A DNA stretch of 50,805 bases. Origin: a virus. A program made the position numbers and the translations under genes. The notes under the pieces were generated by a model, which made no database searches, was not told the origin of the DNA, and was given only the letters and a program-made list of their open reading frames with translations. Of the stretch, positions 10,699 to 50,805 are shown piece after piece. The DNA lies in the IMG/VR virus record IMGVR_UViG_3300025159_000004, positions 1-50,805 of that record, one strand, 5' to 3'. Every line of letters starts with the position of its first letter. Position 1 is the stretch's first letter.

Positions 10699-12770
10699 TA
10701 TCCTGGCCTTGTCGTCGGTGCGGCGATCAGCGAGATTGGTGGAAAGATTTCAAAGCCATAGGTTGCCGCTTGGAGTCGCACCTGGACCCACTTGGTTGTA
10801 CCACCGAAGATGATGTTTGACAGTGTGGCAATCGTTGGCGACGCGGCAAGTGAATCGCGCTGCTCAAACGATGCACTGTCAAAAGCATGTGGATGGTTGG
10901 CGTAGCGCACGTGGACCTGGATAGCGACGGTCGACTTGTAGGGGACGCTAATGCCAATCCACTTGGTGACCTTATCACGCGCCTGTGTCCCGATCCACGG
11001 CAGGTCGATGTACGCTGTCGTGTCGGTCCCAAGCCAAGCGCCAGACGTTGCTGCGCCCATCCGCCAGATATCGGCGGCGTCGTTGACAGAGTACAGCGTC
11101 TCACGTACACCGTCGACGTAAGCTTCCGTCGCATAGTCAGCCAACTGGCCCATCCGCGACGGCCACACGGCGTCACCAATATCTTGGGCGCGCACATAGT
11201 CGAAGACGATCCCGTTCGTCGTCTGTGTAGGGTCGGACTCATCGACTTCACGAAACCAGAATCTGACAGTCTTCGTGGACTCGTCGCGGATGCCTACCGT
11301 CCACTGAGGCTCTTCAAGCCAGATGTCTCTTAAGAGTGGCGCAACCTTCTCTGAAACGTAGTTACGCCCAGTCTGGCGTAGCATGTAGATGCCGCGCTGC
11401 CACGGGAAGAGCAGCGACCCGGATGGCGTCTCCACCAGGGCGAGCGGCGAGTCGATGCCATTCTCCGTCGACACAACCGACCGTGTGGGTGTCCCATCAG
11501 TCCCAACCGTCCACGCTAAGACGGTATTCTGCATGCCGACAATGACGGCGTCACCATACTCCCGAACAGCCGTGATGCGGTTCGTGCGGCTGAGCGACTG
11601 CGCGCCACCAGACATCACCTGCGTGTTGGTTGATGGGAACTCGTCAGGCTTGCTTGCTGGTGAGTAGAAGAGTGTCGAGAGGGCCGGGTCGCTATTTGAG
11701 CCAGCCACGGGCACGCCGCCAAGGATGATACGATCTTTGTGCGCGCAGCCAACCTGAGCAGCAGGTGGGGCGTCAGCATACAAGAAGTAGATGTCATCAA
11801 TGTAGATCACGTTTGTAGCATCATCGTTAGTGATAACCATCGAGGCCACCGTAGCCCAGTTCGCGGTATCAGCGGCGCGCGCAATCGACGCTTGATGCCA
11901 TGTCCCGTCAGCGGTTATACTTGAGAGAGTATGGGCGCCAATAAGTGTCCCGCCACCACCTGGGGCCGTATAAAACCGCACGACACACTGGTTAGCCGTA
12001 GCCGCTTTGAGATACTTAAACTGTATGAAGTCTGTAGTAGCAAACTGTGTCCCACCATAGGGACGCGGCCCAGCACGAAAGTCGCGTACTGGATCAAAGT
12101 CAACGGTGCTTGTCCCACTCGTCCCTACGCGGAGCGCAGACGTTCCCACGCGCGCCGGAACTGGCAAGCTCGCATCCACAATGAAGCCAGGCGATCCACC
12201 CCCAGTATGTGAAACCCACGTTTCCCCGGCGACGGTTCCAGAAACAAGCGGGCTGATCGGCTTGCTACCCAGCGGGAAGAGATGCGGCGTCGCATAGTTC
12301 TGGCCGTCCCAACGGAAGTGTTGTCCGTATTTAAGTGGGTTATCACGCCCATTGAACAGCACGAGCCATTGGTCATACACACAATGGGTATTCAGGTCGG
12401 TCGCGTTGCTGCCTGTGCGCCGCACGGCGGTCTCAGTGCCAGGCGCGCCCGACGTATACGTGTAGTAGTTCCCATCCGCACGGTGAATGAGCAACTCCGT
12501 GACATACGTGAGTACGCCCGTCGTCGAGTTATACGTCGCGTATGTAAACGGAGCAAACCACCTCACGTTGCTGGCTGTCCACGTGATAGCGGCATCCAGC
12601 TCCGCGTCAGGCTGCATCGTCGTTGGGTGCTGACCAGATGTATCAGACGTCAGGAGCATATTCAAGGCGTCGTCGTAGTGTCCCTCCGCGATCAGCGTTC
12701 GCGGGGAGTCGCGGTCGATTCCCTTGGCAAACGAGCTGAGGACCTCAGCGCCCTGGGCCTCGTATGGCAT
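10698..12770 (-). CDS. large tail/baseplate structural protein (690 aa)
   Basis: Its size and position in the late operon suggest a tail tubular or nozzle-like role. This is an inference. Confidence 0.75.
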   Translation of the reverse strand: MPYEAQGAEVLSSFAKGIDRDSPRTLIAEGHYDDALNMLLTSDTSGQHPTTMQPDAELDAAITWTASNVRWFAPFTYATYNSTTGVLTYVTELLIHRADGNYYTYTSGAPGTETAVRRTGSNATDLNTHCVYDQWLVLFNGRDNPLKYGQHFRWDGQNYATPHLFPLGSKPISPLVSGTVAGETWVSHTGGGSPGFIVDASLPVPARVGTSALRVGTSGTSTVDFDPVRDFRAGPRPYGGTQFATTDFIQFKYLKAATANQCVVRFYTAPGGGGTLIGAHTLSSITADGTWHQASIARAADTANWATVASMVITNDDATNVIYIDDIYFLYADAPPAAQVGCAHKDRIILGGVPVAGSNSDPALSTLFYSPASKPDEFPSTNTQVMSGGAQSLSRTNRITAVREYGDAVIVGMQNTVLAWTVGTDGTPTRSVVSTENGIDSPLALVETPSGSLLFPWQRGIYMLRQTGRNYVSEKVAPLLRDIWLEEPQWTVGIRDESTKTVRFWFREVDESDPTQTTNGIVFDYVRAQDIGDAVWPSRMGQLADYATEAYVDGVRETLYSVNDAADIWRMGAATSGAWLGTDTTAYIDLPWIGTQARDKVTKWIGISVPYKSTVAIQVHVRYANHPHAFDSASFEQRDSLAASPTIATLSNIIFGGTTKWVQVRLQAATYGFEIFPPISLIAAPTTRPG

Positions 12771-22751: not shown

Positions 22752-22827
22752 TGGAGCCCCGCCGTGGAGTCGAACCACGACCTGGTCGGTTACAAACCGT
22801 CCGCTCTGCCTGTTAAGCTAACGGGGC
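22752..22827 (-). tRNA. trnT: tRNA-Thr (anticodon UGU), CCA encoded
   Basis: A hand-folded 76-nt cloverleaf: acceptor GCCCCGT/GCGGGGC, D arm GCTT/GAGC, anticodon loop TTTGTAA, T arm CGTGG-TTCGACT-CCACG. There is one A-A mismatch in the anticodon stem. Confidence 0.85.
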
Positions 22828-31098: not shown

Positions 31099-32417
31099 CA
31101 GGCACTTCCAGTACCCAAGTCTAACGGTACCTCATAACCAGCACCAAAACCGCCAGTGCTGGGCATCCCGAATGCTCCACTCCCACCGAGCGCGGTATTG
31201 AGCGCAGCAGAGAGGTTGATAAGATTTTCATACTCGGCTTGGTCGTATCCGAGCTCGCCGAGCCCCGTGGAACGCGCGGCGGTCATGTCAGCCACCTTCT
31301 GCCCTACCCGCGCGTTGAGCGCGCCTAGCCGTGTACCTCCGGGGCTTTGCGCCAGTACGTCTAGATTGTGGTACATATTGCCGGCTCCCGCGTTTGGAAT
31401 GTAGCGCATCGCCTCTTGACCCAACGGACCACGATAGATATCGCGCTGGCGGATATCCTCGTTGAGCGATGATAGTGCTTCGGGGTTTTGTCCTACACGT
31501 GATGGGGCACGTGTCTGTCCAGCCATCAATGGCGAAGCAAAGCTCGTCGGGCCCGGCTGTCCCTGCGCGAGTGTCATTCGTTCTTTATAAGCGTTGATGA
31601 TTGCTTGTGCTTGGGGCGAGTAGCGCTGCCAGCTCCCGGGCTCTATAGTCCCGAGAGCCGCTTCCAACTCTTCTGGCGTTCCGGCTTCCTTGAGGTTGAG
31701 TCCAAAGGTGCCAAGCTGTTCAGCGTAATACTTATCCTTCATCGCTTCCCTTTGGGCACGCGAGGGCTCATCCCATCCGAAGATTTGACTAGCAGCATCG
31801 GAGAGCGCGGGACCAAACATGGCTACGGGTGGGAAGAAGCTCGTGCCCACACCCATGCCGATGTCGTGAATAGCTTTCCATGCTTTGTAGTCGGCCGGCG
31901 CATCTGAGCCCATTGTCTGCGCAGTATTGATTGCCGCAATAGCGGCCTGGATGTAAGGTGCGATATCGCCTATGTTGAGCCCACCTGCTGCGCCCGTTGC
32001 ACCCTGCTCGGCAGTCGTTGCGAGGTCGATGTCACTCGGCGATAGCCCACCAGCCGCCGCACCACCATATGGGATGATCTCTTGTGGAAAATCTGCAAAG
32101 AGGTCAAGCCCACGTGGGATGGCACCAGTAATGGAACCGTCAGGCGTGCGTTGGTCACCGCGCCCTTTGAACCCCTCAGCAAGCTTAGCTCCAGTCTTAC
32201 CTACGCTAAGCGCCTGCTTTGCTGTGCCAAGCTTCTCTTCAAGGCCAGTCGGCTTATCCTCTTGGTCCTCTTCATCGCGCCGCTTCTTGGGTGATGCACC
32301 TACACCAAATCCGCCGCGGGCGGGGGCACTTCCCGGGAGGAGGGGGCTAAGGAACTCGCGGGTTCCTCCCCGTCCTTCGGGGGTGTACTTGGCGTAGTCG
32401 GTGATTCGTCTGGCCAT
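31098..32417 (-). CDS. Gly/Ala-rich hypothetical protein (439 aa)
   Basis: ORF coupled downstream by an ATGA-type overlap. Its 5' end overlaps the upstream gene by ~118 nt. Confidence 0.65.
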   Translation of the reverse strand: MARRITDYAKYTPEGRGGTREFLSPLLPGSAPARGGFGVGASPKKRRDEEDQEDKPTGLEEKLGTAKQALSVGKTGAKLAEGFKGRGDQRTPDGSITGAIPRGLDLFADFPQEIIPYGGAAAGGLSPSDIDLATTAEQGATGAAGGLNIGDIAPYIQAAIAAINTAQTMGSDAPADYKAWKAIHDIGMGVGTSFFPPVAMFGPALSDAASQIFGWDEPSRAQREAMKDKYYAEQLGTFGLNLKEAGTPEELEAALGTIEPGSWQRYSPQAQAIINAYKERMTLAQGQPGPTSFASPLMAGQTRAPSRVGQNPEALSSLNEDIRQRDIYRGPLGQEAMRYIPNAGAGNMYHNLDVLAQSPGGTRLGALNARVGQKVADMTAARSTGLGELGYDQAEYENLINLSAALNTALGGSGAFGMPSTGGFGAGYEVPLDLGTGSA

Positions 32418-32845
32418 TCCACATCGTCCTTGAAGTCGCTCAGGGCGGTAGAGCTGTCGGCACCACTAGCACCACTGACGATCGCTTCAACCTTGGAAGC
32501 AATGTCAGCAAGGGCGCGTACCGCATGAATACGGTCAGCGTCACGGTTAGCGGTCTTGGCGATCTTGTTCAGCTGATCGAGGCCGTCGAGGAGACCTTGG
32601 CGTACCCGCCGCCTAATGGCGTTTGCATGGGTCTCTGCTGCTCCAGCAGCCTCAGTCAGTATCTTGTTGATCTTGGGGTCCCAGTCGTCGGCGTCACGCC
32701 AACGCTGGATTGTCTTGAGCGCCACCCCAAGCTCTTGTGCTATGGATCGCAACGAGCGACGCTTGCCCGTCGCTGCTGCTGACATGTACAGCTCGAAGGC
32801 TTTAGTGCGCTCCGCCTTCTTTGGGTCGAACTGGTTTGGCTCCAT
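32300..32845 (-). CDS. HTH DNA-binding protein, possible terminase small subunit; first gene of the leftward arm
   Basis: HTH-like RSLRSIAQELGVALKTIQRWRD. GGAGACGC precedes the ATG. The gene is separated from TerL by two genes. Confidence 0.45.
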   Translation of the reverse strand: MEPNQFDPKKAERTKAFELYMSAAATGKRRSLRSIAQELGVALKTIQRWRDADDWDPKINKILTEAAGAAETHANAIRRRVRQGLLDGLDQLNKIAKTANRDADRIHAVRALADIASKVEAIVSGASGADSSTALSDFKDDVEWPDESPTTPSTPPKDGEEPASSLAPSSREVPPPAADLV

Positions 32846-32994
32846 GCGTCTCCGCTATATCCGCCGCGCCGCCCGGGGTAGCCGGGTCCACCTGGGGCTC
32901 GGGAAAGCCATTGTGTGGGCCGGGGGGCAGGGTAGCCCCAGCTGGCAGGGCCGGGCAGCGAGCGAGCCTGGCTTGGGTCTGCGCAGCATGTGCT

Positions 32995-33012
32995 TGCGTC
33001 ATAATTGACGCA
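32995..33012. promoter_or_regulatory. perfect palindrome TGCGTCA-TAAT-TGACGCA upstream of the leftward arm
   Basis: Read directly: 7-bp arms with a 4-bp spacer that contains CATAAT. Confidence 0.4.
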
Positions 33013-33096
33013 CGCCGCTTGGCCGCGCGTGCTTGCGGATTGGGTCGGCGTTCATGCTGGTCGAGGCATTTCCTCACATAGAGGAAGCGTGCCAGC

Positions 33097-33109
33097 TGCC
33101 ACTTTGGCA
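33097..33109. promoter_or_regulatory. operator-like palindrome TGCCA-CTT-TGGCA, copy 1
   Basis: The exact 13-mer is repeated at 33181-33193. Degenerate copies lie at 33279-33291 and 33956-33967. Confidence 0.5.
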
Positions 33110-33174
33110 CGCAATCTTTCGTGTCATCTTGGCACGATTGGGGTGGTGAATAGCTTACACGGAACTATGGCGGT

Positions 33175-33203
33175 GTCTCATGCCACTTTGGCACCGTGAG
33201 ACA
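33175..33203. promoter_or_regulatory. operator-like palindrome TGCCA-CTT-TGGCA, copy 2, flanked by inverted GTCTCA/TGAGAC
   Basis: GTCTCA-TGCCACTTTGGCA-CCG-TGAGAC. The 8-mer GTGAGACA recurs at 33271-33278 and 33331-33338 (inverted) and at 42525-42532. Confidence 0.5.
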
Positions 33204-33376
33204 ACCCCCCTCGTGAGTACTAAAAAGCGCAACATCATGTGTGTAGTTTCTTACCACCACTACCTGGAGTTGTCTCACGCCAATTTGTCACATGTCCAAA
33301 AGTGCGCTGTAAACTATTGAAATATTACCTTGTCTCACGGTGCGGACCTACTATATAGAATATAGAGACAACCCTC

Positions 33377-33407
33377 GGGGGAGGGAGCTCGCACCGCCCC
33401 CTCCCCC
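33377..33407. other. 9-bp all-G/C hairpin (GGGGGAGGG / CCCTCCCCC) opening a C-run tract
   Basis: Read directly: 13-nt loop, followed by C5, C3, C3, C6 and C4 runs up to 33445. Confidence 0.5.
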
Positions 33408-33633
33408 TCGCCTCCCGCTCACGCTCCCGGCTCACCCCCCACCCCGGAGCGCGCTATGACGTTTTGGCGCTGACGCGGGTGGCGGGGGGAATTTCACGTG
33501 AGGGGGACTCCTAGACGCTATTAGGTACTTAAAAGCATTCTTTTCCACATAGTTAGCGAGGGGGCCCCATGTCAAAATTGGAGGAGGTGCGTGTGGGCTC
33601 AGGCTGGATGGGGACGGGCTGGGCTGAGCTGAC

Positions 33634-33689
33634 AGCAGCATGGCCAGGCTGGCTGGGGCATAGCAGCATAGCCAAGCTGGCACTAGCAT
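33634..33689. repeat. two tandem 28-bp units (iteron-like)
   Basis: AGCAGCATGGCCAGGCTGGCTGGGGCAT and AGCAGCATAGCCAAGCTGGCACTAGCAT match at 22 of 28 positions. They are embedded in repeated GGCTGG/GCATGG motifs. Confidence 0.6.
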
Positions 33690-33859
33690 GGGGATGGGGA
33701 TGGCATGGGCTAAGCTGGGGCTATCTAGCCATTACCAGCCCGGTGGGGCATTGCGTAACTGTAACATAGCCTTACATAACGCATGGTTAGGGTGGGATAG
33801 GTAGTGTTCCCAACTGCCACACAGGTTGACGCGCGCATGTATGTCAGTCATAGGCGATA

Positions 33860-34044
33860 CCCCGCCCCCGTATTTTCGCGTCTCATTTTTGCCACGAAAA
33901 ATAATTGGCTCACGTTTTCGCCCACTTACGGCGCGCCGCTTGTGAACCTTTTCACGCCAATTTGGCAAAAACCCACAATTCCGCGGGTTTGGCGGGGCGG
34001 GGGTATCCCCTTAGGGTAGAGGCGAAAAAATCGGCGGGGCGGGG
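33860..34044. repeat. GC-box repeats: GGCGGGGCGGGG at 33991 and 34033, near-inverted copy CCCCGCCCCC at 33860; hairpin 33871-33902
   Basis: Read directly. They lie just upstream of the first rightward gene (ATG 34068). Confidence 0.5.
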
Positions 34045-34067
34045 CCAAACTCACCGGGAGAGAACTT

Positions 34068-34331
34068 ATGAAATTGCGGGAACTGGTCGACGGGTATGTG
34101 GCTACTCCAGCCGACGCGGCTGCCGCGGCGGCCTGGCGCGCCATCCTGGCCGAGATCGATGCGGAGTGGGCGAGCCTGCTCGGTGATCACGAGTTGTCCA
34201 CACTGGGGCGGGTCATCGAGTATGCCGCGGTCAAACAGGTCATCACCAACGACAGCGGCCTACGGCTGGCAGTCGCGACGTTCGCACTCGGTCGCGAGTT
34301 CGGCTGCAGGGCCGAACGGCTGGAAGGCTAG
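34068..34331 (+). CDS. early protein (87 aa), hypothetical
   Basis: GGAGA lies 7 nt upstream of the ATG. This is the first gene of the rightward arm. Confidence 0.7.
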   Translation: MKLRELVDGYVATPADAAAAAAWRAILAEIDAEWASLLGDHELSTLGRVIEYAAVKQVITNDSGLRLAVATFALGREFGCRAERLEG

Positions 34332-34333
34332 CA

Positions 34334-34555
34334 GTGGCCAGATTGTCACGTAGACGCGGCGTGCAGGGTACAGCGCCACGCATGGCACTGTCAGACGCTG
34401 CTACCGCGCTACGTGACAGTTGCCGTCCCAAACACCAAACACGCGGGCTATGGAGGGCTCGCATCACAAACGCTGCATACTTCCGACAACGTGCGTTTCA
34501 GCGACGTCTAGCTGTCGCACGAGCAGAATGGCAGACGCTAGGCATCCCAGACTAA
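34334..34555 (+). CDS. early Arg-rich protein (73 aa), GTG start
   Basis: N-terminal MARLSRRRG arginine-rich motif, with GGAAGG upstream. Confidence 0.55.
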   Translation: MARLSRRRGVQGTAPRMALSDAATALRDSCRPKHQTRGLWRARITNAAYFRQRAFQRRLAVARAEWQTLGIPD

Positions 34556-34566
34556 GGGGAGACACG

Positions 34567-34731
34567 ATGGACAAGTTCACCTTCGCGATGGTCCAACACT
34601 CGGAGCACAAGCACTCCATTCGCTACGACGCGGCGGACGGCAAGGCGCCAGTCAAGAGCATCTACGTGGCCCGGCTGGCCCTCGGATCCGCCGCGCCGGC
34701 CGAGCTGACGGTCACAGTCGGCCCGAAGTAG
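34567..34731 (+). CDS. early protein (54 aa)
   Basis: ATG 34567 has AAGGGGA upstream. Sequence: MDKFTFAMVQHSEHKHSIRYD... Confidence 0.55.
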   Translation: MDKFTFAMVQHSEHKHSIRYDAADGKAPVKSIYVARLALGSAAPAELTVTVGPK

Positions 34732-34809
34732 CCGAAACGCGCCCCGGTCAGCATGACGGGGTGCGTCATACGGTAAAGCGCCTAATCCGTATCTGAAGAG
34801 GCTTGGCGC

Positions 34810-34850
34810 GGGGCGTGGGGAGAATGGGCTTCCCACGCCCCATTCCTTTT
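34810..34850 (+). terminator. intrinsic terminator
   Basis: A perfect 10-bp stem GGGGCGTGGG/CCCACGCCCC with a 12-nt loop is followed by ATTCCTTTTG. Confidence 0.7.
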
Positions 34851-34855
34851 GCCTG

Positions 34856-34879
34856 CACTCGTGAACAGTTTCACGAGTG
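34856..34879. promoter_or_regulatory. 24-bp perfect palindrome CACTCGTGAA-cagt-TTCACGAGTG (operator-like)
   Basis: Read directly. A related GTGAA-cctt-TTCAC element lies at 33942-33955, and TTTCACG recurs at 33492 and 42540. Confidence 0.5.
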
Positions 34880-35121
34880 TCAATGTGCAGGGCCTAGGAG
34901 CCACGATGATCGAACGGGCATACCCGAGTAGCCTCGCAGGCGAGAAGTCGCGCCCAGGAGGCGCCCAAGGGCCCTACGGGTCAAATTTGGGGCTAGTGCC
35001 CCGCCGCATTCGCCGCCGCGCCACGTTTAGGCGCCTCGCCCCCGGTCGACAGGCTGGGGACGTGCTCGCGTGTACGCATGCGTGGGGCGTGCCCGTAGCG
35101 CGTGCGTCCGGGCGAGCTCGC

Positions 35122-35544
35122 GTGTGTGCTCCCCGAGCGGCCAAGCGACAATGGAGCCTTGAAATAGATATCATTCGTGGTATCATCGTACGAGTACACG
35201 CTGGCCTAATAGGGCTAGTGCTACTAGCCGGGTGCGGTAGTCAGCTAGTCGAAGGTCGTGACTACTGGATTGACCAACAGGCCCGGACGATCTATACGCG
35301 CTCTGAGCAGATTGCACAGAATGTATGCATGATGCGCGGTGCTGACTATGGACCATACCTAGCGCGTAATGTGCTTACTGGCGTAGCATTGGGAAGTGGC
35401 GTGTCCACCAATACGGATAGCTGGAATAACGATGCATTTGGGTGCTATGATGCACGAGATGACGTTATCATTTGTACTAAAGACAACCCAGCGTGTATGC
35501 CTCACGAACAGGGACATCGCGGAGGTATACTCCAACATGACTAG
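35122..35544 (+). CDS. lipoprotein (lipobox LLAGC); start uncertain
   Basis: GLIGLVLLAGC-GSQ matches a lipobox. The nearest upstream in-frame start is GTG 35122. The track start at 34849 crosses the terminator and palindrome. Confidence 0.55.
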   Translation: MCAPRAAKRQWSLEIDIIRGIIVRVHAGLIGLVLLAGCGSQLVEGRDYWIDQQARTIYTRSEQIAQNVCMMRGADYGPYLARNVLTGVALGSGVSTNTDSWNNDAFGCYDARDDVIICTKDNPACMPHEQGHRGGILQHD

Positions 35545-35664
35545 AGAACACGCCTTCCGTCTAGCGTTCTTGTACGCTAGAATCAAACTCAATCACGTAA
35601 CGATTCCAGTAACAGATCCACGCGACCCCACGCCTTGGCGTATCCTGTTAACGGCTCGCGCGTA

Positions 35665-36578: not shown

Positions 36579-36810
36579 TTACACGTGGAGCGAGCTTGTA
36601 CAAGTCAACACGCGTCGCCCACACATGATGCGGCTAAAGCATCGGTGCATATTAACAACCGGGCATAATCTTTCCACACATCCGTGCACCAATCCAGAAA
36701 CTGGTCGGCGACATATGCACAAGACGCAACCAACACCGCATCGTTGCGCCTGCCAACCAGTCGATGAGTTTCACACGGATCGTGTGCTACCGGGGGGAGA
36801 ACCTAAGTGA
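36565..36810 (+). CDS. Cys/His-rich small protein (81 aa)
   Basis: The start was set to ATG 36565, which has GGAGG 7 nt upstream. The stop overlaps the next start (GTGA). Confidence 0.5.
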   Translation: MTYCSYTWSELVQVNTRRPHMMRLKHRCILTTGHNLSTHPCTNPETGRRHMHKTQPTPHRCACQPVDEFHTDRVLPGGEPK

Positions 36811-37913
36811 GAGCCATCGCACCACTGTTCGTAGCCGCTCAAGCGGGAACACCAGTCCTGGCGATTGGTTCGCCCGGCGTCGGCAAGTCTGCTATCATTA
36901 ACAGCGTAGGTAACAGTTTAGACTATGAGGTCTTCACTGTTATCGCGTCGCTACGTGAACCAGCAGACTTTGCTGGGTTGCCGTTTATCAAGGATGGCAA
37001 AGTGTTTCTGGCCCCACCAGCTTGGGCAGTAGCGGCGGCAGAATCCAAGCGCGCTATCGTATTTCTTGACGAGATCAGCACCGCGTCACCAGCAACACAA
37101 GCAGCACTCTTGCGGCCAGTGCTAGAGCGCGTGGTCGGTGACATTGTGCTTCCAAGTACCGTGTCGTTTATCGCAGCAATGAATCCACCCGATGAAGCAG
37201 CGGGTGGCTGGGACTTATCAGCCCCACTTGCAAACCGCTTCTGCCATCTCAATTGGATACCCGATGCAGCAATATGGATCGATGGGATGATGCAAGGCTT
37301 TCCCGTGCCCAGTGTACCACGACTCCCGGCTAACTGGGAAAGTTATCTTCTGGAAGCCCGAACGATGGTATCGTCATTCATTCGCCACAAGCAGACACTA
37401 TTCCTCAACGTGCCCAAGGAAGCCGACAAAATGGGTAAGCCGTGGCCGTCGCCTCGGTCGTGGACTATGGCAGCGACATTGCAGGCCGCCACCAAGGCCG
37501 CTCAGGCCGGGAGAGAATGTGAAGCTCTTCTCGTTGCAGGTTGTGTTGGTGAGGGAAGCGCGCTAGAGTACCTGAGTTGGCGCGACGCTATGGATCTTCC
37601 TAATCCTGAAGATGTGCTCGCGGACCCTGACAACTTTGAGGTTCCCGATCGTGGAGATAAGTTGTATACTGTCCTCGCGTCAGTCGCTGTAGCCGTTGCC
37701 ACGAACCTGACCAAGGATCGTTACTTGCGCGCCTATCGCGTGTTTAACCGCGCTGCTGAGGCGGGGAAGAAAGATGTAGCGGCGGCGAGCGTTAGGATGC
37801 TGTCAATCGCTGGCGTCAAGGCACAATACCTTACGGACGAAAAGCTTCGTCGGGCTGTCCAGCCACTCATGAAGCCATTTGTCCAGTTGCTAACAGAAGC
37901 AGGGATTATCTAA
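36807..37913 (+). CDS. MoxR-like AAA+ ATPase (AAA_5 type)
   Basis: Walker A GSPGVGKS, Walker B IVFLDEIS and the sensor region ATQAALLRPVLER are present. The start is GTG with a GGGGGGAGA RBS. Confidence 0.8.
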   Translation: MRAIAPLFVAAQAGTPVLAIGSPGVGKSAIINSVGNSLDYEVFTVIASLREPADFAGLPFIKDGKVFLAPPAWAVAAAESKRAIVFLDEISTASPATQAALLRPVLERVVGDIVLPSTVSFIAAMNPPDEAAGGWDLSAPLANRFCHLNWIPDAAIWIDGMMQGFPVPSVPRLPANWESYLLEARTMVSSFIRHKQTLFLNVPKEADKMGKPWPSPRSWTMAATLQAATKAAQAGRECEALLVAGCVGEGSALEYLSWRDAMDLPNPEDVLADPDNFEVPDRGDKLYTVLASVAVAVATNLTKDRYLRAYRVFNRAAEAGKKDVAAASVRMLSIAGVKAQYLTDEKLRRAVQPLMKPFVQLLTEAGII

Positions 37914-38650
37914 TGCGTGATGAAGCAATACTAACACCAGGAACAGTTAACCAGTATCTAGTAGATAATATGTATTGTCACTCGTGGAGCATAGTAAGTA
38001 GTCAAGACTATATCATGAAGCGCTTGCCGATGCACACGAGCTATAAACGTACTCCTACTGGATACAATCACGTGACTACACCAATACCATACTGGATGAG
38101 CCCAACCATGACGATAAGCGATTTGGATGATTCACAACGAATACTCGACTGCCGCGAGCCGGTAGCTATTACTGTGGCTGCGAAGTCTAACCCCGGCCAA
38201 AGAATGCAAGCATGGCGCGTTCACAGTTTGTCACGCAATACAGTTAAAGATTTAGATATTTCACGCAATGCACCATATCAGCTACGCGCGGCACAAGCAA
38301 GAATCTTCGAAGAATATGACTATCGTGGCCCGGTAAAGGGTAGTGAAGCAAAAGGACTTAGCCGATTCTTCATGACTATAGGTAAGGATGAGTATGTGCG
38401 ACGCGGATGGTTTTTTAAAGAAACTTTCATGCATGCGTGGCGTCGCAGTAAGCTCATCTACTGTTACGTTTTTAAGTGCCCAATCCCCGGAGTAGATTTC
38501 GCGGATTTCATGCTTGCCGTTCGCGCATTCAAGAGTAACGGTAAGTTTCGCCAAACGGTCAAAGCACTTATCGACAACCCCGACAACGCTGTAGACGAAA
38601 TCAACACGCTCAAAGCTATGCTAACGCTCGCAAAGGGGATGGGTAAGTAA
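37913..38650 (+). CDS. hypothetical protein (245 aa) in a low-GC island
   Basis: ORF coupled at both ends by TAATG overlaps. Hand counts give 20/60 and 25/60 G+C in the lines at 37921 and 38041. Confidence 0.75.
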   Translation: MRDEAILTPGTVNQYLVDNMYCHSWSIVSSQDYIMKRLPMHTSYKRTPTGYNHVTTPIPYWMSPTMTISDLDDSQRILDCREPVAITVAAKSNPGQRMQAWRVHSLSRNTVKDLDISRNAPYQLRAAQARIFEEYDYRGPVKGSEAKGLSRFFMTIGKDEYVRRGWFFKETFMHAWRRSKLIYCYVFKCPIPGVDFADFMLAVRAFKSNGKFRQTVKALIDNPDNAVDEINTLKAMLTLAKGMGK

Positions 38651-39888
38651 TGAGCGATAACCTGCCCGAACGGCTCCAAGCGTCCCGCGTGTGGCTGGGC
38701 TTCAAGCGACCATATCTTGGCGCACTCTTGTGGGCATTACGCCCGACCCCGATGAAAGGTTTGGGAACATTTGGGATTAACCCTAAGCTCCAGTTGGTGT
38801 ATGACCCAGACAAGCTCCAAGAGTGGAGCATAGAACACTGTGCAACGGTGCTCTACCATGAATGTGGTCACATTCTACGCGACCATGCTGGCCGCGCGGC
38901 TATGGTCGCTGACCGTGATCCGAAAGCGTGGAATATCGCCGGAGACGCGGAAATAAACGATGATCTTGCTAGTGAGCAGTGCAAATGGCCCTTTGTGCCA
39001 ATCTACCCTAAAAACTTAACACCACCGCAGCCGGCCGGCTTGACAGCAGAAGAGTATTACGCTCATATGCCGTTGGTCACGGTTGGTATGGCAAGCGATG
39101 GTGATGGTAAGGGTAATCAGAAGTTTCCCGGCCAAGGTAAATGCCAAGGCGTGCATCCAAGCGATGACGATTCCAAAGGTGATGGAGTACATCCCATTGA
39201 AGTGGAGCTTATTCGTCGGCAAGTTGCACAAGACGTGCAAGACATGGTCAAGTCGCGTGGCACTGTTCCGGCGTGGATGCAACTATGGGCGCAACATTTG
39301 CTGGAGCCTAAAGTTGACTGGCGCCGCATGCTGCGCGCTGAAGTCCGCCGTGCCGCATCTGACGTGATGGGGCAAGTTGACTTCCGCTATAAGCGACCGT
39401 CACGACGAACGGTCGTGTTACCAGATCTCATTCTTCCGATCTTACGTATGCCTGAGATACAGATCGCAGTCGTGGTCGATACGTCTGGGTCTATGCTTGG
39501 TGGGCCTGATAACGTGTCAGACCTGGAACGCGCGATGGCTGAGCTGTCGGGCGTCATCAAGCATTTTGGGCGTCATAGCGGTGTTCAAGTCTACGCTGTC
39601 GATGCAGCCGTTGCCAGTGCGAAGCGAGTGTTCAAGTTGTCACAAATCTCGCTCGCTGGCGGTGGCGGAACCAACATGTGCGTAGGAATCGAAGCCGCGG
39701 TTAACGGTAAGCCAAAACCCAACATCGTTATTGTACTCACTGATGGTGCGACACCGTGGCCGACCACGCCCATTTCCAATGTTCGCGTAATCGCTGGCGT
39801 TATCGGTAATGAGCGCGTACATAGCGCTGTCCCTACCTGGATTCGTGTCGTGCCTATTGCTACACAAGACGAGGAACGCAAGCGATGA
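38650..39888 (+). CDS. VWA-domain protein with N-terminal putative metallopeptidase domain (DUF2201_N + DUF2201 architecture)
   Basis: HExxH in VLYHECGHILRDH, then NIAGDAEINDDL. The C-terminal VVDTSGSM is a MIDAS-like DxSxS motif. Confidence 0.75.
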   Translation: MSDNLPERLQASRVWLGFKRPYLGALLWALRPTPMKGLGTFGINPKLQLVYDPDKLQEWSIEHCATVLYHECGHILRDHAGRAAMVADRDPKAWNIAGDAEINDDLASEQCKWPFVPIYPKNLTPPQPAGLTAEEYYAHMPLVTVGMASDGDGKGNQKFPGQGKCQGVHPSDDDSKGDGVHPIEVELIRRQVAQDVQDMVKSRGTVPAWMQLWAQHLLEPKVDWRRMLRAEVRRAASDVMGQVDFRYKRPSRRTVVLPDLILPILRMPEIQIAVVVDTSGSMLGGPDNVSDLERAMAELSGVIKHFGRHSGVQVYAVDAAVASAKRVFKLSQISLAGGGGTNMCVGIEAAVNGKPKPNIVIVLTDGATPWPTTPISNVRVIAGVIGNERVHSAVPTWIRVVPIATQDEERKR

Positions 39889-40088
39889 CTGATGAAGAGA
39901 TCAGACTACTATACACAGAATGTCGGCTCGCGGGGATGCGTATGTGTTTAGGGTGTTTATGTCCACTTCTAGACCACGTTGACACACACTGCACCCCGTG
40001 TGCACGTTTGGAAGAAGAAGAATGCCCGTGTCAACGGCACCGCCAAATCTTGGGTTTGGCAAACACCGCAACGTGGGCTAAAGCATGA
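39885..40088 (+). CDS. small zinc-finger protein, LAG-CxxC...HCxxC family
   Basis: Motif: TECRLAGMRMCLGC...THCTPC. Confidence 0.6.
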   Translation: MTDEEIRLLYTECRLAGMRMCLGCLCPLLDHVDTHCTPCARLEEEECPCQRHRQILGLANTATWAKA

Positions 40089-40306
40089 TCCTTATACCAA
40101 AAGGACTCTCAAATGACGAAGCGCGCGCGATCCAAGCAGAACAGCGTCTCGCGGGTATCCCGACGTGTCCGCTCTGCAAAGGTGCGGGTAAAATCTTCAC
40201 CGGCAAAACGCGTCAAATCGCCGGGCGCGAATACACGTTCTTCATCTACTGCTCCCGTTGTGAAGGCCGCGGATCGGCGGAAATGCCGGAATCCACGTTG
40301 TCATAA
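40085..40306 (+). CDS. DnaJ-type zinc-finger protein (two CxxCxGxG motifs)
   Basis: Contains CPLCKGAG and CSRCEGRG. Confidence 0.65.
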   Translation: MILIPKGLSNDEARAIQAEQRLAGIPTCPLCKGAGKIFTGKTRQIAGREYTFFIYCSRCEGRGSAEMPESTLS

Positions 40307-40478
40307 AATGTTCGTGCCGTGGAGCCCGACAACCTACGTCTGCTCAGAACACTGTGCGTGGTGTATGCTGCTGGAACGAATATGCGGAAACTCTATAGAC
40401 GCAGACGCCTACTGGAAACAATATCGCGCGACAGTCATGGAAGCGTACGCGAAAATGAAGCGTAGGAGTGACCCTTGA
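40260..40478 (+). CDS. small zinc-finger protein, YacG-like Cys pattern; start uncertain (alternative ATG 40308)
   Basis: The motif CRNPRCHKMF...YVCSEHC requires the GTG 40260 start. No clear RBS precedes either start. Confidence 0.4.
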   Translation: MKAADRRKCRNPRCHKMFVPWSPTTYVCSEHCAWCMLLERICGNSIDADAYWKQYRATVMEAYAKMKRRSDP

Positions 40479-41029
40479 CGCCAATAGAATTTACTGATAC
40501 CATTGTGGCAGTAACACCACAGCTCCGTAATCGTTTGTCAGGTGAGTTTCGTCGCGCAGATCGAACAGAGATTGACGAAGCATTATGTACCGCGACGATG
40601 GAAGCGTGGTCTAAGAAACCTACCTACTTTCCCAAGCGAGTCGCACTGGAAATATTCGTGCTTGACACTGCAAGACTACGCCTGATCGACTACATGCGTA
40701 AGGTTGCCATTCGCTTTGGTGCTCGAACGCTAGGGCCGCGCGTCTATGATCCAAGCACGCCTATCGACCGTCGGCTGGACTTGATTAAGGCCATCAAGCG
40801 GTCTACACATTCTTCTATGTGGCCGATGCTCTGGAACATCTTGTGGTATGGCTATACAGTCAGGGAAGCGATTGGTTTTGGGGCTCGATACATTGGGACT
40901 GAACGCACGGAGTCTGCTGGGGCGCTTCGTGGTCAACTGGCTCGGGCGCTTCGCCGGGTAAAGCAGCGGCTGCGAGACGATGCGCGCATGATTGTCCCCC
41001 AAGCACACGAAAGTATGTCGCGCGGCTGA
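40475..41029 (+). CDS. ECF-like sigma-70 family sigma factor (tentative), TTG start
   Basis: Region-2-like ALEIFVLDTARLRLIDYMRK and region-4-like YTVREAIGF...GALRGQLARALRRVKQRL. Confidence 0.5.
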   Translation: MTPIEFTDTIVAVTPQLRNRLSGEFRRADRTEIDEALCTATMEAWSKKPTYFPKRVALEIFVLDTARLRLIDYMRKVAIRFGARTLGPRVYDPSTPIDRRLDLIKAIKRSTHSSMWPMLWNILWYGYTVREAIGFGARYIGTERTESAGALRGQLARALRRVKQRLRDDARMIVPQAHESMSRG

Positions 41030-41861
41030 TCTTAAGGTCGACGTGGGCTTTTTTCCACAATTGGTTATGTGACGTGGCAACATTCTGCGCGCACATGTCT
41101 AAGAGTTTGGGGAGGAGTTTCATATCTTCGTCTAAGTCTGGATAATCGAAGATGCCATTATCACCTTGAACGGCACGTAGGCGCTGATCTTCATGGAATC
41201 GGCTTATCATCTTAAGGTATCCACCATGAAGCAACCAGAAGGCGTCTACGCGCCCAGTAATGTACGATGAGCCACGCGCGAGCGATGATAGCTCGACATC
41301 CGCGCTATCATCGCGTGACATCTTGCGCGTGTGGTGGACAAAGAATACGGTGTAACCTGCAAACAGAGACTCAAAGGAGTCAAACACGACTTTCATAGCG
41401 GTGCTGTCATTCTCGTCAGCTTGGTGGATCTCGCGGAGTACGTCAATGATGATAACGTCTGGCTTCTCAGCGGCGAGCACTTTTGACAACCACTCGCGAT
41501 GCTGCGGAATGGTAAGGATCATTGGCAGGAGGAGGTCATCAGGATGAACGAAGCGGAAGTTTGCTGTGTTGAGCTTATAGCCACTGCCTTCAAGCTCGGC
41601 AAGGCGCTCTGTCCAAGCGGGACGCTTCGTGTCAAGTTGCAAATAGAGGACTCTAGCGGGCCGCCCCACCTTACAGCCGAACACGTCTTTTCCCTCAGCG
41701 ATGCGGGAGCCAACATCAAACATGAGAAAGCTTTTACCGGCTTTTGGACTACCCATGACTAGGATGTATGCAGGTCGTGGCACCAAGCTGTCAACAATCC
41801 AGTTGACGCGGTCTGATTGGCTCACATCGAGATATTCCTTAGGGGAGACAGTTCGTGTCAA
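40860..41861 (-). CDS. RecA-fold ATPase, RepA/DnaB-like (AAA_25 type) with C-terminal HTH; only reverse-strand gene in the rightward arm
   Basis: Walker A GSPKAGKS, Walker B VIIIDVL and HTH-like ISRATYFRVLGG. The start is TTG with AGGAGG 8 nt upstream. Confidence 0.6.
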   Translation of the reverse strand: MTRTVSPKEYLDVSQSDRVNWIVDSLVPRPAYILVMGSPKAGKSFLMFDVGSRIAEGKDVFGCKVGRPARVLYLQLDTKRPAWTERLAELEGSGYKLNTANFRFVHPDDLLLPMILTIPQHREWLSKVLAAEKPDVIIIDVLREIHQADENDSTAMKVVFDSFESLFAGYTVFFVHHTRKMSRDDSADVELSSLARGSSYITGRVDAFWLLHGGYLKMISRFHEDQRLRAVQGDNGIFDYPDLDEDMKLLPKLLDMCAQNVATSHNQLWKKAHVDLKISRATYFRVLGGQSCAHRLAAAALPGEAPEPVDHEAPQQTPCVQSQCIEPQNQSLP

Positions 41862-42103
41862 TGTCTGAGCCTCCTAATCGCGATGAAAGATTGGCTAGTA
41901 AGTTACGAGATGATGAAATGGTAATGATAACTGAATACGTGCTCGCCGGACTTAAGTTTCCCATTTGTAACGCTTGCCGAAAGCGCCCAATAGGCCCCTT
42001 GCTCGTCAACCATTGTGATGTGTGTTGGAAGGAATGTAAGCACCCCTGTTACACGCCAACGCATGGTGCTATTCAGCTAGATGGCCAGATATGGCGACAA
42101 TAA
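41855..42103 (+). CDS. small zinc-finger protein, LAG-CxxC...HCxxC family
   Basis: Motif: TEYVLAGLKFPICNAC...NHCDVCW. Starts are GTG 41855 or ATG 41861. Confidence 0.65.
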   Translation: MSMSEPPNRDERLASKLRDDEMVMITEYVLAGLKFPICNACRKRPIGPLLVNHCDVCWKECKHPCYTPTHGAIQLDGQIWRQ

Positions 42104-42456
42104 GACCTCGTGATCTGACACTCACCGAAGTCGCCGAGTTAATGCTAGCTGGTATTGAGTTCCCTGTTTGTGGGGTTTGCGTGAAAGCTACCATAGGTGG
42201 CAACGGGCTGACCAACCATTGTAGATCCTGCTGGAAGCTCTGTAGTCGAGGCGGGTACAGCATACCTCACAACATGCCTCCCAAGCATGGACACTACAAG
42301 GTTGATGGGTTGTGGTATCCACCACCCAAAAATGGGGAAAACGCCTACCCTGGTCCAGGTGATGTCAGACGGCGCCAAGCGTGGATTGATAAAAGCACTA
42401 GCGTTGCCTGTGTCAATCTGTCCCTTCCTGGCGTGGGCGCGTCGGGAACACCGTAA
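42091..42456 (+). CDS. small zinc-finger protein, LAG-CxxC...HCxxC family
   Basis: Motif: VAELMLAGIEFPVCGVC...NHCRSCW. It is a tandem paralog of the preceding gene. Confidence 0.65.
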   Translation: MATIRPRDLTLTEVAELMLAGIEFPVCGVCVKATIGGNGLTNHCRSCWKLCSRGGYSIPHNMPPKHGHYKVDGLWYPPPKNGENAYPGPGDVRRRQAWIDKSTSVACVNLSLPGVGASGTP

Positions 42457-42990: not shown

Positions 42991-43199
42991 CCGATGAGTT
43001 CATGGAGATGGCCCTCCGCCAGCAGCTCGCCGACGCGGAGGAGCGCGTGCGGGAGCTGGAGGAAGCGCTGCACGCCTTGACTATCTGGTCGCAGAATGGT
43101 GAGCAACTGTGTTTTCGGTCACACAATAACGTTCCAATGGGAATGAGCAAGACGCAAGAGCGACTTGCCCGCGCCGCCCTCGCGCGGAGGACGCCGTGA
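42987..43199 (+). CDS. coiled-coil protein (70 aa)
   Basis: Contains ERVRELEEALHAL. ATGA overlap with the upstream gene. Confidence 0.65.
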   Translation: MTDEFMEMALRQQLADAEERVRELEEALHALTIWSQNGEQLCFRSHNNVPMGMSKTQERLARAALARRTP

Positions 43200-43678
43200 C
43201 ACAGCCCGAGTCTTTAGGCAGCCAGGTCGGTCGCCTTGCTCAGTTCATTGTGGACTCGGTGCCGGGTGAGCCGAGCCAGAGCGAAGGCGCCGTTGACACG
43301 GCGATCCGCGTGATGACAACGCTTCAGGCGCGCGTGCGGGAGTTGGAAGAGGCGTTGGGCACGCTGCTGATGTGTGCTCACGGTGACGAGCACATGTGTG
43401 GCTGTCGTGAGCAAGCAGACCTCGCGTGGAGGATACCAAGTATCACGTCGACGACGTGCCGCGAGTGCGGCGGATCAGGTCGATTTCGCGTCGGGTATTT
43501 CCCCAACCACGAGGAGTTCGAGCGGACGGGGCCTGACGAGGTGTGTGGAGTCTGCGGGGGGTCCGGGACCGCCACCATGACCGACAACACCCCGATGGAT
43601 CTCACAGACGACGAGCGGGCGCGCGTGGAGGGTGCCATGATTGGTAGGATGCACTGCGAGCGCGGGGGTAACAAATGA
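43196..43678 (+). CDS. DnaJ-type zinc-finger protein (160 aa)
   Basis: ARVRELEEALGTL is a paralog of the previous gene's motif. CRECGGSG and CGVCGGSG are also present. Confidence 0.65.
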   Translation: MTQPESLGSQVGRLAQFIVDSVPGEPSQSEGAVDTAIRVMTTLQARVRELEEALGTLLMCAHGDEHMCGCREQADLAWRIPSITSTTCRECGGSGRFRVGYFPNHEEFERTGPDEVCGVCGGSGTATMTDNTPMDLTDDERARVEGAMIGRMHCERGGNK

Positions 43679-46032: not shown

Positions 46033-46179
46033 GCCTTTCAGGTGCTTAGCCGCGGGGCCCGCTTAGTGTGGCAGCGGTTTACTAGCCATTTGGCCAGGCT
46101 ACGCCAGGAGGAGGCCACACGCCCTAGTGATATGCTTGGGCAGAGAACTCCTCTTGGTGATTTCTTAGGAGGCTCAGTA

Positions 46180-46431
46180 ATGACACCGCAGGGTGGACTG
46201 GAAGGGCGCCAGCGGCGGGTTCATACCCCGCATGACGAGAGTTCGAATCTCTCCCCTGCTACCATTGAGCCCGATAGACGAGAGGCATTTACGTGTGTTG
46301 TCTGCTGGGAAGATCGACACGAAAATGTTACGCTAACTGAGGCCCCACTTGAATTCAACAACCGCTCGGTCGAAGTCATCCACAAATGGTACTGCCCAAA
46401 ATGCGGGCGCGAAGTTACATTTGGGCTCTAG
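46180..46431 (+). CDS. zinc-ribbon protein (83 aa) whose N-terminal codons overlap the tRNA-like element
   Basis: AGGAGG lies 7 nt upstream of ATG 46180. The zinc ribbon is CVVC...CPKC. No in-frame ATG, GTG or TTG lies downstream of the tRNA-like sequence. Confidence 0.5.
   Translation: MTPQGGLEGRQRRVHTPHDESSNLSPATIEPDRREAFTCVVCWEDRHENVTLTEAPLEFNNRSVEVIHKWYCPKCGREVTFGL
46187..46264 (+). tRNA. tRNA-Met-like (anticodon CAU), initiator-like features, non-canonical D-arm spacing
   Basis: Acceptor CGCAGGG/CCCTGCT with a C1-U72 mismatch. D stem CTGG/CCAG. Anticodon arm GCGGG-TTCATAC-CCCGC. T arm GAGAG-TTCGAAT-CTCTC, then ACCA. It is 78 nt and has extra connector nucleotides. Confidence 0.5.
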
Positions 46432-46657
46432 AAAGCTACCTGAGATTCCCCTAGGAACTGTCGAAGCAATATTGGCGGGTGGCCACCTTTGTGAGTGTTG
46501 CCGGATGATGCCGGGGTTAGTGAATAAGGATCACGTGGTCGCCTACGAATACTGCGATTGGTGTTTGCGGACGCACGGCCCGTACTGTCATCCGTCCTAT
46601 AAATACAGCACCGCATACTTGTGGTGGGTGCGATATGACACAAATCGACGCACTTGA
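46421..46657 (+). CDS. small zinc-finger protein, LAG-CxxC...CxxC family; start uncertain (TTG 46421 or ATG 46349)
   Basis: Motif: TVEAILAGGHLCECC...YCDWC. Confidence 0.5.
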   Translation: MGSRKLPEIPLGTVEAILAGGHLCECCRMMPGLVNKDHVVAYEYCDWCLRTHGPYCHPSYKYSTAYLWWVRYDTNRRT

Positions 46658-46853
46658 GTACGCACAGTGGGTGCTAGCTGGGAAACATATCTGTCATGTA
46701 TGTGGCGCGCTCGTGGGTAAAGGCTATCGCGCGCATTGCAACCGACACGGGACCTCAACATATACAAGTGAGCACGGGAGCACAATATATTCCGATGTGT
46801 GCTGCTCTCATCTGTGTGGATGGGGTTCCGATGCAGACTTCGAGTGGGACTAG
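46635..46853 (+). CDS. small zinc-finger protein, LAG-CxxC family
   Basis: Motif: YAQWVLAGKHICHVCG...AHC. It is a tandem paralog of the preceding gene. Confidence 0.6.
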   Translation: MTQIDALEYAQWVLAGKHICHVCGALVGKGYRAHCNRHGTSTYTSEHGSTIYSDVCCSHLCGWGSDADFEWD

Positions 46854-50477: not shown

Positions 50478-50777
50478 ATGGCACCCACTAAACCCCTGAC
50501 CATTTGGGTCCATCCTCGCTGGGCCAAGCATCCGGCCATCTGTGAACTGGAGACTAAAGGGCATACTATCGTGGATATGGGCCAACCAGGCCCGTGGGCT
50601 GAGCCGGATCTCATCCTTCACCCCTCAGCTTGGCGCTGGAATGAAGAACTCTGGAAGTACATCGACATCACCATCAAGGAGGCTCGGCGTGCTAAATATC
50701 CACCCGACGGGGTCGACACTCCCATCAACACTAGAAAGAACGCTCGTCATCCAGCCAGACATCGCGGGGATGCCTGA
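50478..50777 (+). CDS. hypothetical protein (99 aa) running into the terminal repeat
   Basis: The ORF ends inside the 99-bp repeat. Its stop overlaps the ATG of the ORF annotated at 64. Confidence 0.65.
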   Translation: MAPTKPLTIWVHPRWAKHPAICELETKGHTIVDMGQPGPWAEPDLILHPSAWRWNEELWKYIDITIKEARRAKYPPDGVDTPINTRKNARHPARHRGDA

Positions 50778-50805
50778 CTCACGATATGTGCTCATCGTGG
50801 GTAAT
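50707..50805. repeat. Exact 99-bp terminal direct repeat, copy 2 (identical to 1-99)
   Basis: Read directly. Confidence 0.95.

Follow-up and report, generated by a model that had tools for sequence, protein, structure and literature searches.

Eight small genes with a common motif

The DNA analyzed here, referred to below as the window, comprises positions 1 to 50,805 (its full length) of the IMG/VR virus record IMGVR_UViG_3300025159_000004, and our subject is a group of small cysteine-rich proteins encoded on its + strand, in which the tripeptide LAG is closely followed by a CxxC knuckle. A sequence-only reading of the window had listed seven such open reading frames (ORFs) and quoted their motifs, and all seven were found where it had placed them. 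Our search of the six-frame translation for LAG-x(0-6)-CxxC yielded eight matches, all of them on the + strand and inside ORFs, while over 500 residue shuffles the average count was 0.34 and the highest 4. The family proposed in that reading is real, and in the window it counts eight members (m1 to m8, Table 1) rather than seven. Since the overlooked member, m4, overlaps the stop codon of m3, there are also four tandem pairs (m1/m2, m3/m4, m5/m6 and m7/m8), not three. The proposed pattern was right as regards LAG followed by CxxC; its E-x-x-LAG part is specific to this genome (Glu at position −3 in 7/8 window copies vs 0/26 in relatives, p = 1.5e-6), and the second knuckle takes the form H/Y-CxxC in six of the eight members, with C-x2-H in m8 and H-x2-C in m2. 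From copy to copy, L, A, G and Cys are encoded by different synonymous codons, and no DNA repeat linking the copies was found in the window; the conservation is thus at the protein level, and on the same grounds a DNA-level repeat or regulatory element was rejected.

Neighboring genes mostly overlap by a few bases: the start of m3 overlaps the stop of the preceding metallopeptidase/VWA gene, m6 overlaps the end of m5, and the stop of m8 abuts the start of PolA (46854), whereas m5 is divergent from a RepA-like gene. For three members (m2, m5 and m7) it is uncertain which start codon is used. For m2 the candidates are 1791, 1839 and 1872, of which the first is preceded by AGGAG and the gene call in contig L008 gives 93 aa; m5 has alternative starts at 41861, 41891 and 41918; m7, with a TTG start, has an alternative at 46349. 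The m1 protein is called as a gene in 14 metagenome contigs and is intact in strain contigs, P0008 is a 1-residue variant of m3, P0003 is a divergent allele of m6, and m7 differs from strain L014 by 2 synonymous and 4 nonsynonymous substitutions.

Table 1. Family members and other features of the window, with their coordinates
Feature	Coordinates	Strand	Length	Protein	Motif or description
m1	1396-1653	+	85 aa	P0001	...NERVHEWVLAG-KP-CAFCG-x12-HCSSC...
m2	1791-2072	+	93 aa		...ALAEAVLAG-LAET-CAHCG-x20-FHEAC; C2-HC ligands
m3	39885-40088	+	67 aa		MTDEEIRLLYTECRLAG-MRM-CLGC-x11-HCTPC
m4	40085-40306	+	73 aa	P0012	...AEQRLAG-IPT-CPLCKGAG-x20-CSRCEGRG; AEQRLAGIPTCPLCKGAGK...YCSRCEGRG; DnaJ-like CxxCxGxG knuckles
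m5	41855-42103	+	82 aa	P0007	...ITEYVLAG-LKFPI-CNAC-x12-HCDVC
m6	42091-42456	+	121 aa	P0002	...EVAELMLAG-IEFPV-CGVC-x13-HCRSC; long tail
m7	46421-46657	+	78 aa		...GTVEAILAG-GHL-CECC-x17-YCDWC
m8	46635-46853	+	72 aa	P0009	MTQIDALEYAQWVLAG-KHI-CHVCG-x11-HCNRH
Sigma factor gene	40475-41029	+	184 aa		divergent ECF-type sigma factor; not a family member
RepA-like gene	40860-41861	−			AAA_25
MoxR module	36807-39888	+			MoxR-like AAA+ ATPase, 245-aa gene, HExxH-metallopeptidase/VWA (DUF2201)
Cys-rich ORF	40302-40478	+	58 aa		outside the family
Cys-rich g160	43196-43678	+			outside the family; two CxxCGGSG (DnaJ-like) knuckles
ORF around tRNA-Met	46042-46431		129 aa		mechanical ORF
tRNA-Met (CAT)	46187-46264	+			
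tRNA-Thr (TGT)	22752-22827	−			
Gene-poor stretch	32417-35600		~3 kb		few convincing ORFs
Hairpin	34810-34841	+			strong, GC-rich, 13 bp, followed by a T-run
Mosaic segments	64-408; 2449-3161	+; −			differ between strains
Terminal direct repeat	1-99; 50707-50805		99 nt		exact

Homology and phylogenetic distribution

Related contigs were gathered from IMG/VR and metagenomes with the DNA polymerase as anchor, and originate from Rifle-type sediment, Hainich groundwater and soils. The sole significant BLASTP pair among the members is m5/m6 (40% identity over 70 residues, 1.7e-15). From the eight window members alone we built a profile that detected members of the related lineage L002 with E-values of 3e-7 to 2e-4 in a database of 2,180 ORFs. 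Conversely, when a profile built only from members outside the window was run on 866 window segments, the six best were m1, m8, m2, m7, m6 and m5, with E-values of 4e-7 to 0.01 (m1 4e-7, m8 7e-6, m2 8e-6, m7 1.5e-3); m4 followed with 0.09, and m3, the weakest member by profile despite its full motif, was not recovered. A profile restricted to 13 residues of the helix was too weak for single members, and only m8 reached an E-value of 0.013. This validation in both directions, together with the eight motif matches where 0.34 are expected by shuffling, shows that the shared residues go beyond generic CxxC spacing, as the proposal of a family had presupposed. We conclude that all eight ORFs are genuine coding genes and belong to a single multigene family specific to the clade.

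Searches of Pfam, PHROGs, NCBIfam and PADLOC returned no significant match for the family (in PADLOC none at E < 0.03). Two word-indexed searches of 5.8 billion proteins found only the window proteins, near-identical variants of them and members from related phages, and an exhaustive hmmsearch of 1.84 billion representative sequences located the family in this phage clade only. The exhaustive search brought up one real outsider, P0014, which is encoded on soil contigs next to a RepA-like (AAA_25) gene, in the same slot as m5; three other outside matches (P0010, P0011 and P0013) were rejected as generic Cys-rich repeats or a nuclear-receptor finger. The sequence-only reading had not recognized the motif as a named family, which agrees with these results. 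In the literature we found nothing relevant to the family.

Presence and absence in related phages, which had been named as an informative comparison, follow the polymerase identity: the family is present in every lineage with at least 53% polymerase identity, and absent from a more distant clade (32–37% identity) that includes the complete genome MW202572. The window carries eight copies; in the relatives, counted on partial contigs, we found at least 11 in the L002 lineage (including four without cysteines), at least seven in L025, at least five in L003, at least four in L020 and two in L042 (a 1.9-kb contig). An iterated profile searched against 191 kb of distant phage DNA gave nothing better than E 0.07. 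No close cultured phage was found (the best polymerase match is 37% identical, and tblastn of m6 against cultured phages gave no match), nor any bacterial genome or prophage with a relative of this phage when the polymerase was used as anchor. The family is restricted to a single phage clade from groundwater and soil. As regards the anchor itself, the polymerase gene of L003 is interrupted by ~575 nt (10435-11011), and that of L025 (10001-12685) is ~90 codons longer than its counterpart in the window; both may reflect insertion of an intron, an intein or a homing endonuclease.

Predicted architecture of the proteins

We aligned 36 members from the window and its relatives by anchoring them on the invariant Leu, and obtained the consensus [ILV]-T-x-[DE]-E-h-A-L-h-[VI]-L-A-G-x-P-C-x-x-C, in which LAG is conserved as L in 36/36, A in 30/36 and G in 32/36 sequences. 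We interpret this as a helix of 11 residues, capped by a T-x-x-E box at its N-terminal end and by Gly at its C-terminal end. The initiator Met lies 9–26 residues ahead of the LAG Leu (median ~13), the first CxxC knuckle follows LAG after 2–5 residues in canonical members, and the second knuckle, often H-CxxC, comes after another 9–25 residues, most often 11–12. The CxxC...CxxC arrangement is present in six of the eight window members, and the four ligand columns are invariant or nearly so in alignments of 20 and of 30 members, in which CxxCG and CPxC forms of the knuckles also occur. The tails are variable and show no relation between members. Family proteins are 58–121 aa long, with an isoelectric point (pI) of 5.5–9.0, i.e. 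near neutral. The alignments thus show for each protein a predicted short N-terminal helix ending at LAG, a CxxC knuckle, a loop, a second knuckle and a variable tail.

AlphaFold2 models of m1 and m5, both of low confidence, end the helix exactly at LAG (residues 3–20 in m1 and 7–18 in m5); beyond it, the m1 model has a hairpin at residues 32–41 followed by a 4-residue helix, whereas the m5 model has no hairpin and a helix at 43–49 that begins at the third Cys. Matches of the 30-member profile to the PDB were all C4 zinc fingers or ribbons (MDM2 RanBP2-type 3.8e-4, LIM 3.3e-4, uS14 and the adenylate-kinase lid), with marginal, cysteine-driven E-values. Four small ORFs of L002 (1189-1392, 2578-2814, 4572-4790 and 12580-12774) carry the N-terminal helix of the family and contain no cysteines: they read …T-S/E-D-E-L-x-L-L-V-LAAP… or …LAGE…, followed by an unrelated domain without a Pfam match.

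Evolution of the family

Evolutionary rates were estimated from orthologs of L025 and L020, whose core proteins are 91–97% identical. For four family orthologs, the nonsynonymous divergence (dN) was 0.18 with ω (dN/dS) of 0.19 in the helix and ribbon, and 0.28 with ω of 0.47 in the tails, compared with 0.033 and 0.06 for five neighboring genes. The dN of the family is five to eight times that of its neighbors, which together with the ω values indicates genes that are translated and constrained, but fast-changing. The helices are identical or nearly so between the orthologs, with the substitutions in the inter-knuckle loop and the tail; the family evolves several-fold faster than its neighbors, and changes mainly in these two segments. 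In strain variants of the window phage (96–99.6% identity) all family copies are intact, and the few changes in them lean toward nonsynonymous (~10 vs 4 synonymous, compared with ~40 vs 80 in other genes).

Yet the residues of this nearly constant helix are specific to each genome. Averaged over the seven residues that precede the Leu, BLOSUM62 scores reach 8.0 for members of one genome and 1.7 for members of different genomes (permutation p = 0.0002), and an acidic pair at −7/−6 is found in other lineages (21/26 and 18/26), while only 2/8 window copies are acidic at each position. The ribbon shows a weaker within-genome excess, 0.35 per position vs 0.90 for the helix (p = 0.0008), so that the helix effect is ~2.6 times stronger; because the ribbon shows it as well, recurrent duplication within lineages explains at least a part of the helix signature. 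Our comparison shows that tandem duplication enlarges the family, within a small number of fixed slots that lie between core genes of the early/replication/transcription arm. The duplication and divergence proposed in the sequence-only reading are borne out by the tandem overlapping pairs, by the similarity of m5 and m6, by the closer relationship of paralogs within than between genomes and by the elevated dN of the orthologs.

Such turnover might also be expected of dispensable or selfish filler ORFs that persist in permissive intergenic slots. Presence and copy number vary by lineage (upstream of PolA, L003 has no member and L002 has three), and the sequences change very fast. We consider it quite improbable that the family is of this kind: ω is clearly below 1, the helix and the ligands are strictly conserved across phages of 46–62% GC, every copy is intact in the strain variants, and overlapping stop and start codons embed the genes in operons.

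Genome layout and gene neighborhood

The exact 99-nt direct repeat at the ends of the window, together with strain contigs that span the junction, indicates a complete circular phage assembly with a unique length of 50,706 bp; its GC content is 58%. The structural genes (terminase, SU10-type adaptor and others) are on the − strand, from ~2.0 to 32.4 kb. The early/replication/transcription arm is on the + strand and runs from ~33.9 kb through the junction to 2,072, with m1/m2 at its distal end. Besides the family it encodes a MoxR-like AAA+ protein, an HExxH-metallopeptidase/VWA (DUF2201) protein, the RepA-like AAA_25 protein (on the − strand), a PD-(D/E)XK nuclease, AAA_24, a family-A DNA polymerase, a metallophosphoesterase and NT5C. 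The structural and early arms are divergent, with the gene-poor stretch and its hairpin between them.

Some further features of the genome deserve mention. A tRNA-Thr gene, the second tRNA gene of the window, is located among the structural genes. The tRNA-Met gene, identified by both ARAGORN and Rfam, lies just upstream of m7 and inside a mechanical ORF, which is for this reason at least partly spurious; 3' of the tRNA, 55 codons encode a CxxC...CxxC ribbon (FTCVVCW...WYCPKCGREV) without a start codon. Two Cys-rich ORFs outside the family are also found in the arm: g160, and the 58-aa ORF between m4 and the sigma factor gene, in the same position as the Cys-rich ORF 3022-3306 of L002. Strain contigs, otherwise 99–100% identical, differ by up to ~14% and by indels in two mosaic segments, which suggests that the genes there are recombination patches.

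The order of genes around the family members is conserved between lineages: MoxR, g245, metallopeptidase/VWA, [family], ECF sigma, [family], RepA on the − strand, [family], PD-(D/E)XK, AAA_24, SSB-like, [family], PolA, and onward to a further [family] slot. The slots are fixed across lineages, while their family content varies in number and sequence. The first three genes correspond to the N4 gp24/gp25-like module, which is also present in Schitoviridae and jumbo phages. Within the clade, the MoxR and metallopeptidase/VWA pair co-occurs with the family, but the association is not specific, since the module is common in phages without the family; on this ground we rejected the idea that the family proteins are clients of the pair.

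An upstream peptidase also brings to mind a leader–core or targeting architecture like that of double-glycine bacteriocin leaders, prochlorosin leaders or the T4 capsid-targeting sequence: the LAG helix would be a signal for recognition or cleavage, and would direct a hypervariable Cys-rich cargo to a protease, to an exporter or to the capsid. In each of the five lineages covering the region, members directly follow the metallopeptidase/VWA gene, the N-terminus is conserved and the remainder evolves fast, L002 has the family helix fused to non-cysteine domains, and the A-G of the motif is a small-residue pair comparable with the leader cleavage sites GG, GA and AG. Nonetheless, such an architecture is very unlikely, given that a look through the annotated genes revealed no C39 peptidase, ABC exporter, radical-SAM or lanthipeptide-type enzyme, that the upstream pair belongs to the widespread N4 gp24/gp25-like module that occurs without the family, that CxxC...CxxC with CxxCG knuckles is typical of structural zinc sites, and that the helix is not set at a constant distance (9–26 residues) from the N-terminus.

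A further neighbor is the sigma factor gene, which had no annotation. A profile of five orthologs matched ECF-type structures in the PDB (5uxx 1.1e-6, 7qh5 3.2e-6, as well as SigW, CnrH and SigE), and the L025 ortholog matches Sigma70_r2 at 1e-4. It is the fastest-diverging conserved gene of the module; between strains, it contains a recombination patch with 31 synonymous and 5 nonsynonymous differences. A family member begins at or over the stop codon of the sigma gene in five of the six lineages (L002, L003, L020, L025 and L042); the exception is the window, where the convergent RepA-like gene comes next. There the 3' ends of the two genes overlap by 170 nt (40860-41029), and similar convergent RepA overlaps occur in L003 and L002.

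The family could consist of accessory proteins of sigma or RNA polymerase (anti-sigma factors, co-factors or promoter-class switches), whose conserved helix binds the ECF sigma of the phage or the RNA polymerase of the host. The clade does encode a divergent ECF sigma, the position directly downstream of a sigma gene is the classical one for an anti-sigma gene, many ECF anti-sigma factors (of the ZAS family) bind zinc, the sigma gene diverges fast, and a genome-specific helix is what co-evolution with one lineage-specific partner would produce. We regard this possibility as rather unlikely, because in the window the next gene after sigma is RepA-like and not a member, the proteins lack the ZAS motif H-x3-C-x2-C and no anti-sigma structure is among the PDB profile matches, ~2–11 or more copies per sampled lineage far exceed the need of one sigma, members are also located beside PolA, beside the VWA gene and where the arm ends, and lineage duplication, to judge from the ribbons, can explain much of the helix signature. 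A more elaborate and improbable variant would make the capped T-x-E-E...V-L-A-G helix a portable docking module that co-evolves with one lineage-specific hub protein, most obviously the ECF sigma, with the paralogs as interchangeable adaptors that re-target phage or host transcription and the zinc ribbon or another small domain as their variable head. The genome-specific helix, the cysteine-free helix proteins and the overlap with the sigma stop codon in five of six lineages can be adduced for it.

Alternatively, the tight coupling of the genes might point to sequence-specific nucleic-acid-binding regulators (Ogr/Delta-, Com- or Q-like), each controlling the gene coupled to it downstream. Overlap or abutment is seen in m3-m4, m5-m6 and m7-m8-PolA, small phage zinc fingers of this size, such as Ogr/Delta and Com, often bind DNA or RNA, and m4 has weak matches to PHROGs of Q-like antiterminators (phrog_127 at 5e-4). 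A role of this type is nevertheless unlikely: the pI is near neutral or acidic for most members, eight regulators are implausible for a 50-kb phage, copy number and sequence vary strongly between close relatives, unlike those of core regulators, and there is no significant match to any regulator family in Pfam or PHROGs.

A possible function

The reading that we favor, albeit tentatively and with somewhat less than an even chance of being right, is that the family consists of diversifying, protein-binding zinc-ribbon modulators. The four ligands would bind one zinc ion to form a small zinc ribbon, on which the capped helix may pack. The small size, near-neutral pI, lack of a catalytic motif, copy number and turnover argue for a protein-binding role rather than an enzymatic or classical DNA-binding one; the proteins would thus be modulators, not enzymes or classical regulators. 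The helix and the first knuckle could serve as a common scaffold or docking surface, with the variable loop and tail setting the target specificity. The most likely targets would be components of the host or the phage that are handled early in infection, for instance the machinery of transcription or replication, or the defenses of the host. This is in the same broad category as the diversifying host-takeover or anti-defense effectors envisaged in the sequence-only reading, a role that would fit the way the family evolves. The neighborhood, with an ECF sigma and replication genes, suggests equally a role in the phage's own transcription or replication.

Several observations weigh against protein-binding modulators. 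When the cysteines are masked, only m8 is still significant (E 0.0025) and the profile signal is nearly gone, so that most of it resides in LAG and the ligands; the signal comes from roughly ten positions (the helix-end L-A-G, the four ligands and one Pro or Gly), on which the homology of the most divergent members, m3 and m4, rests, and these two are therefore members by motif and not by score. So few signal positions are normal for tiny metal-binding domains. The AlphaFold2 models have a predicted local distance difference test score (pLDDT) of 55 for m1 and 59 for m5, and Foldseek comparisons of both with the PDB and BFVD found no match at E < 2 (best 2.2 and 2.1). Given these scores and profiles that match only generic short-spacer zinc ribbons, the treble-clef-type fold assigned earlier and a zinc ribbon are both candidates. 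Moreover, the helix is not strictly tied to the zinc ribbon, since the cysteine-free ORFs of L002 share it; ω is below 1 everywhere, which shows relaxed constraint and not positive selection; and members placed beside the sigma gene, as they are in the relatives, could be regulators instead of effectors.

Small ORFan proteins account for a large share of what is unexplained in phage genomes. Whatever its function, the family is well delimited and detectable by profiles, has two parts (a constant capped helix and a variable ribbon and tail), evolves fast and sits in a conserved neighborhood that includes an ECF sigma. Should the helix serve as a shared docking element, the diversification of small phage binders on one scaffold could readily be studied in this family, which would also supply new protein inhibitors or adaptors. 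If it turns out instead to be a structural zinc ribbon and no more, this would be an ordinary ORFan family restricted to one clade.

Comparison with known families

The closest likeness in the PDB is to generic short-spacer C4 ribbons (MDM2 RanBP2-type 2c6a, uS14/eS27 and the adenylate-kinase lid), which have two CxxC knuckles 10–13 residues apart and often a His before the third Cys. These ribbons lack the capped LAG helix of the family, whose spacer is 9–25 residues, and the signature W and N of RanBP2 fingers are not conserved in it. The two CxxCxGxG knuckles of m4, L002 4783-5022 and L002 5026-5298 also recall the DnaJ Cys-rich domain and anti-TRAP. DnaJ, however, has four repeats and two zinc centers, whereas the m4-like members have two knuckles (one metal site) together with the family helix ending in LAG, LSG or LEG, and only a minority of the family has this form. 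The match of m4 to DnaJ_CXXCXGXG (PF00684; 2.3e-4, 21.8 bits) is below the gathering threshold of 32.7, and the other seven members have no match.

ZAS anti-sigma factors resemble the family as it appears in the relatives, being small, Cys-rich, encoded directly downstream of an ECF sigma and translationally coupled; we rejected them on the motif and the PDB matches discussed above, and unlike them the family is multi-copy and scattered, with no member after the sigma gene of the window. TraR/DksA, Lar, Ogr/Delta and Com are phage-borne and of similar size (~60–120 aa), and TraR has an acidic N-terminal helix followed by a C4 ribbon. The fixed 17-residue spacer of TraR/DksA is not kept in the family, where 11–12 is commonest, and the family helix is too short for the secondary channel of RNA polymerase; DksA/TraR (PF01258) was rejected, as the hhalign probability to TraR was 4% with only CxxCG aligned, and one of 30 members matched (E 0.056). 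Lar (PF14354) was matched by m4 only, with E-values (0.027 in Pfam, 0.062 for TIGR03655) far below the cut-offs. The likeness to the ClpX zinc-binding domain (PF06689; 'LIAGP...ICDEC') did not hold either, with a probability of 11% in hhalign, LAG out of register and one of 30 members at E 0.014.

For HNH or endonuclease VII the commonest spacer of 11–12 residues is too short, and the PHROG for endonuclease VII was matched by m1 only (E 0.18). A lipobox (L-A-G-C) is contradicted by the CxxC 2–5 residues after LAG, the acidic amphipathic segment before it and the lack of a signal peptide, and a first helix like that of LuxR or sigma region 4 by the fact that no helix-turn-helix follows. As to precursors of ribosomally synthesized and post-translationally modified peptides or double-glycine precursors, no cognate enzyme is present among the genes annotated by Pfam or PHROGs, with the 32–36 kb ORFs only partly scanned. 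The named look-alikes having been tested without agreement, the family is undescribed. T4 internal proteins with their capsid-targeting sequence and prochlorosin precursors share with it the many paralogs, the conserved N-terminus and the diverging remainder, a likeness of architecture only, without sequence relation. Small cysteine-rich ORFan families are common in phages, and the family described here falls among the small phage zinc-ribbon proteins.

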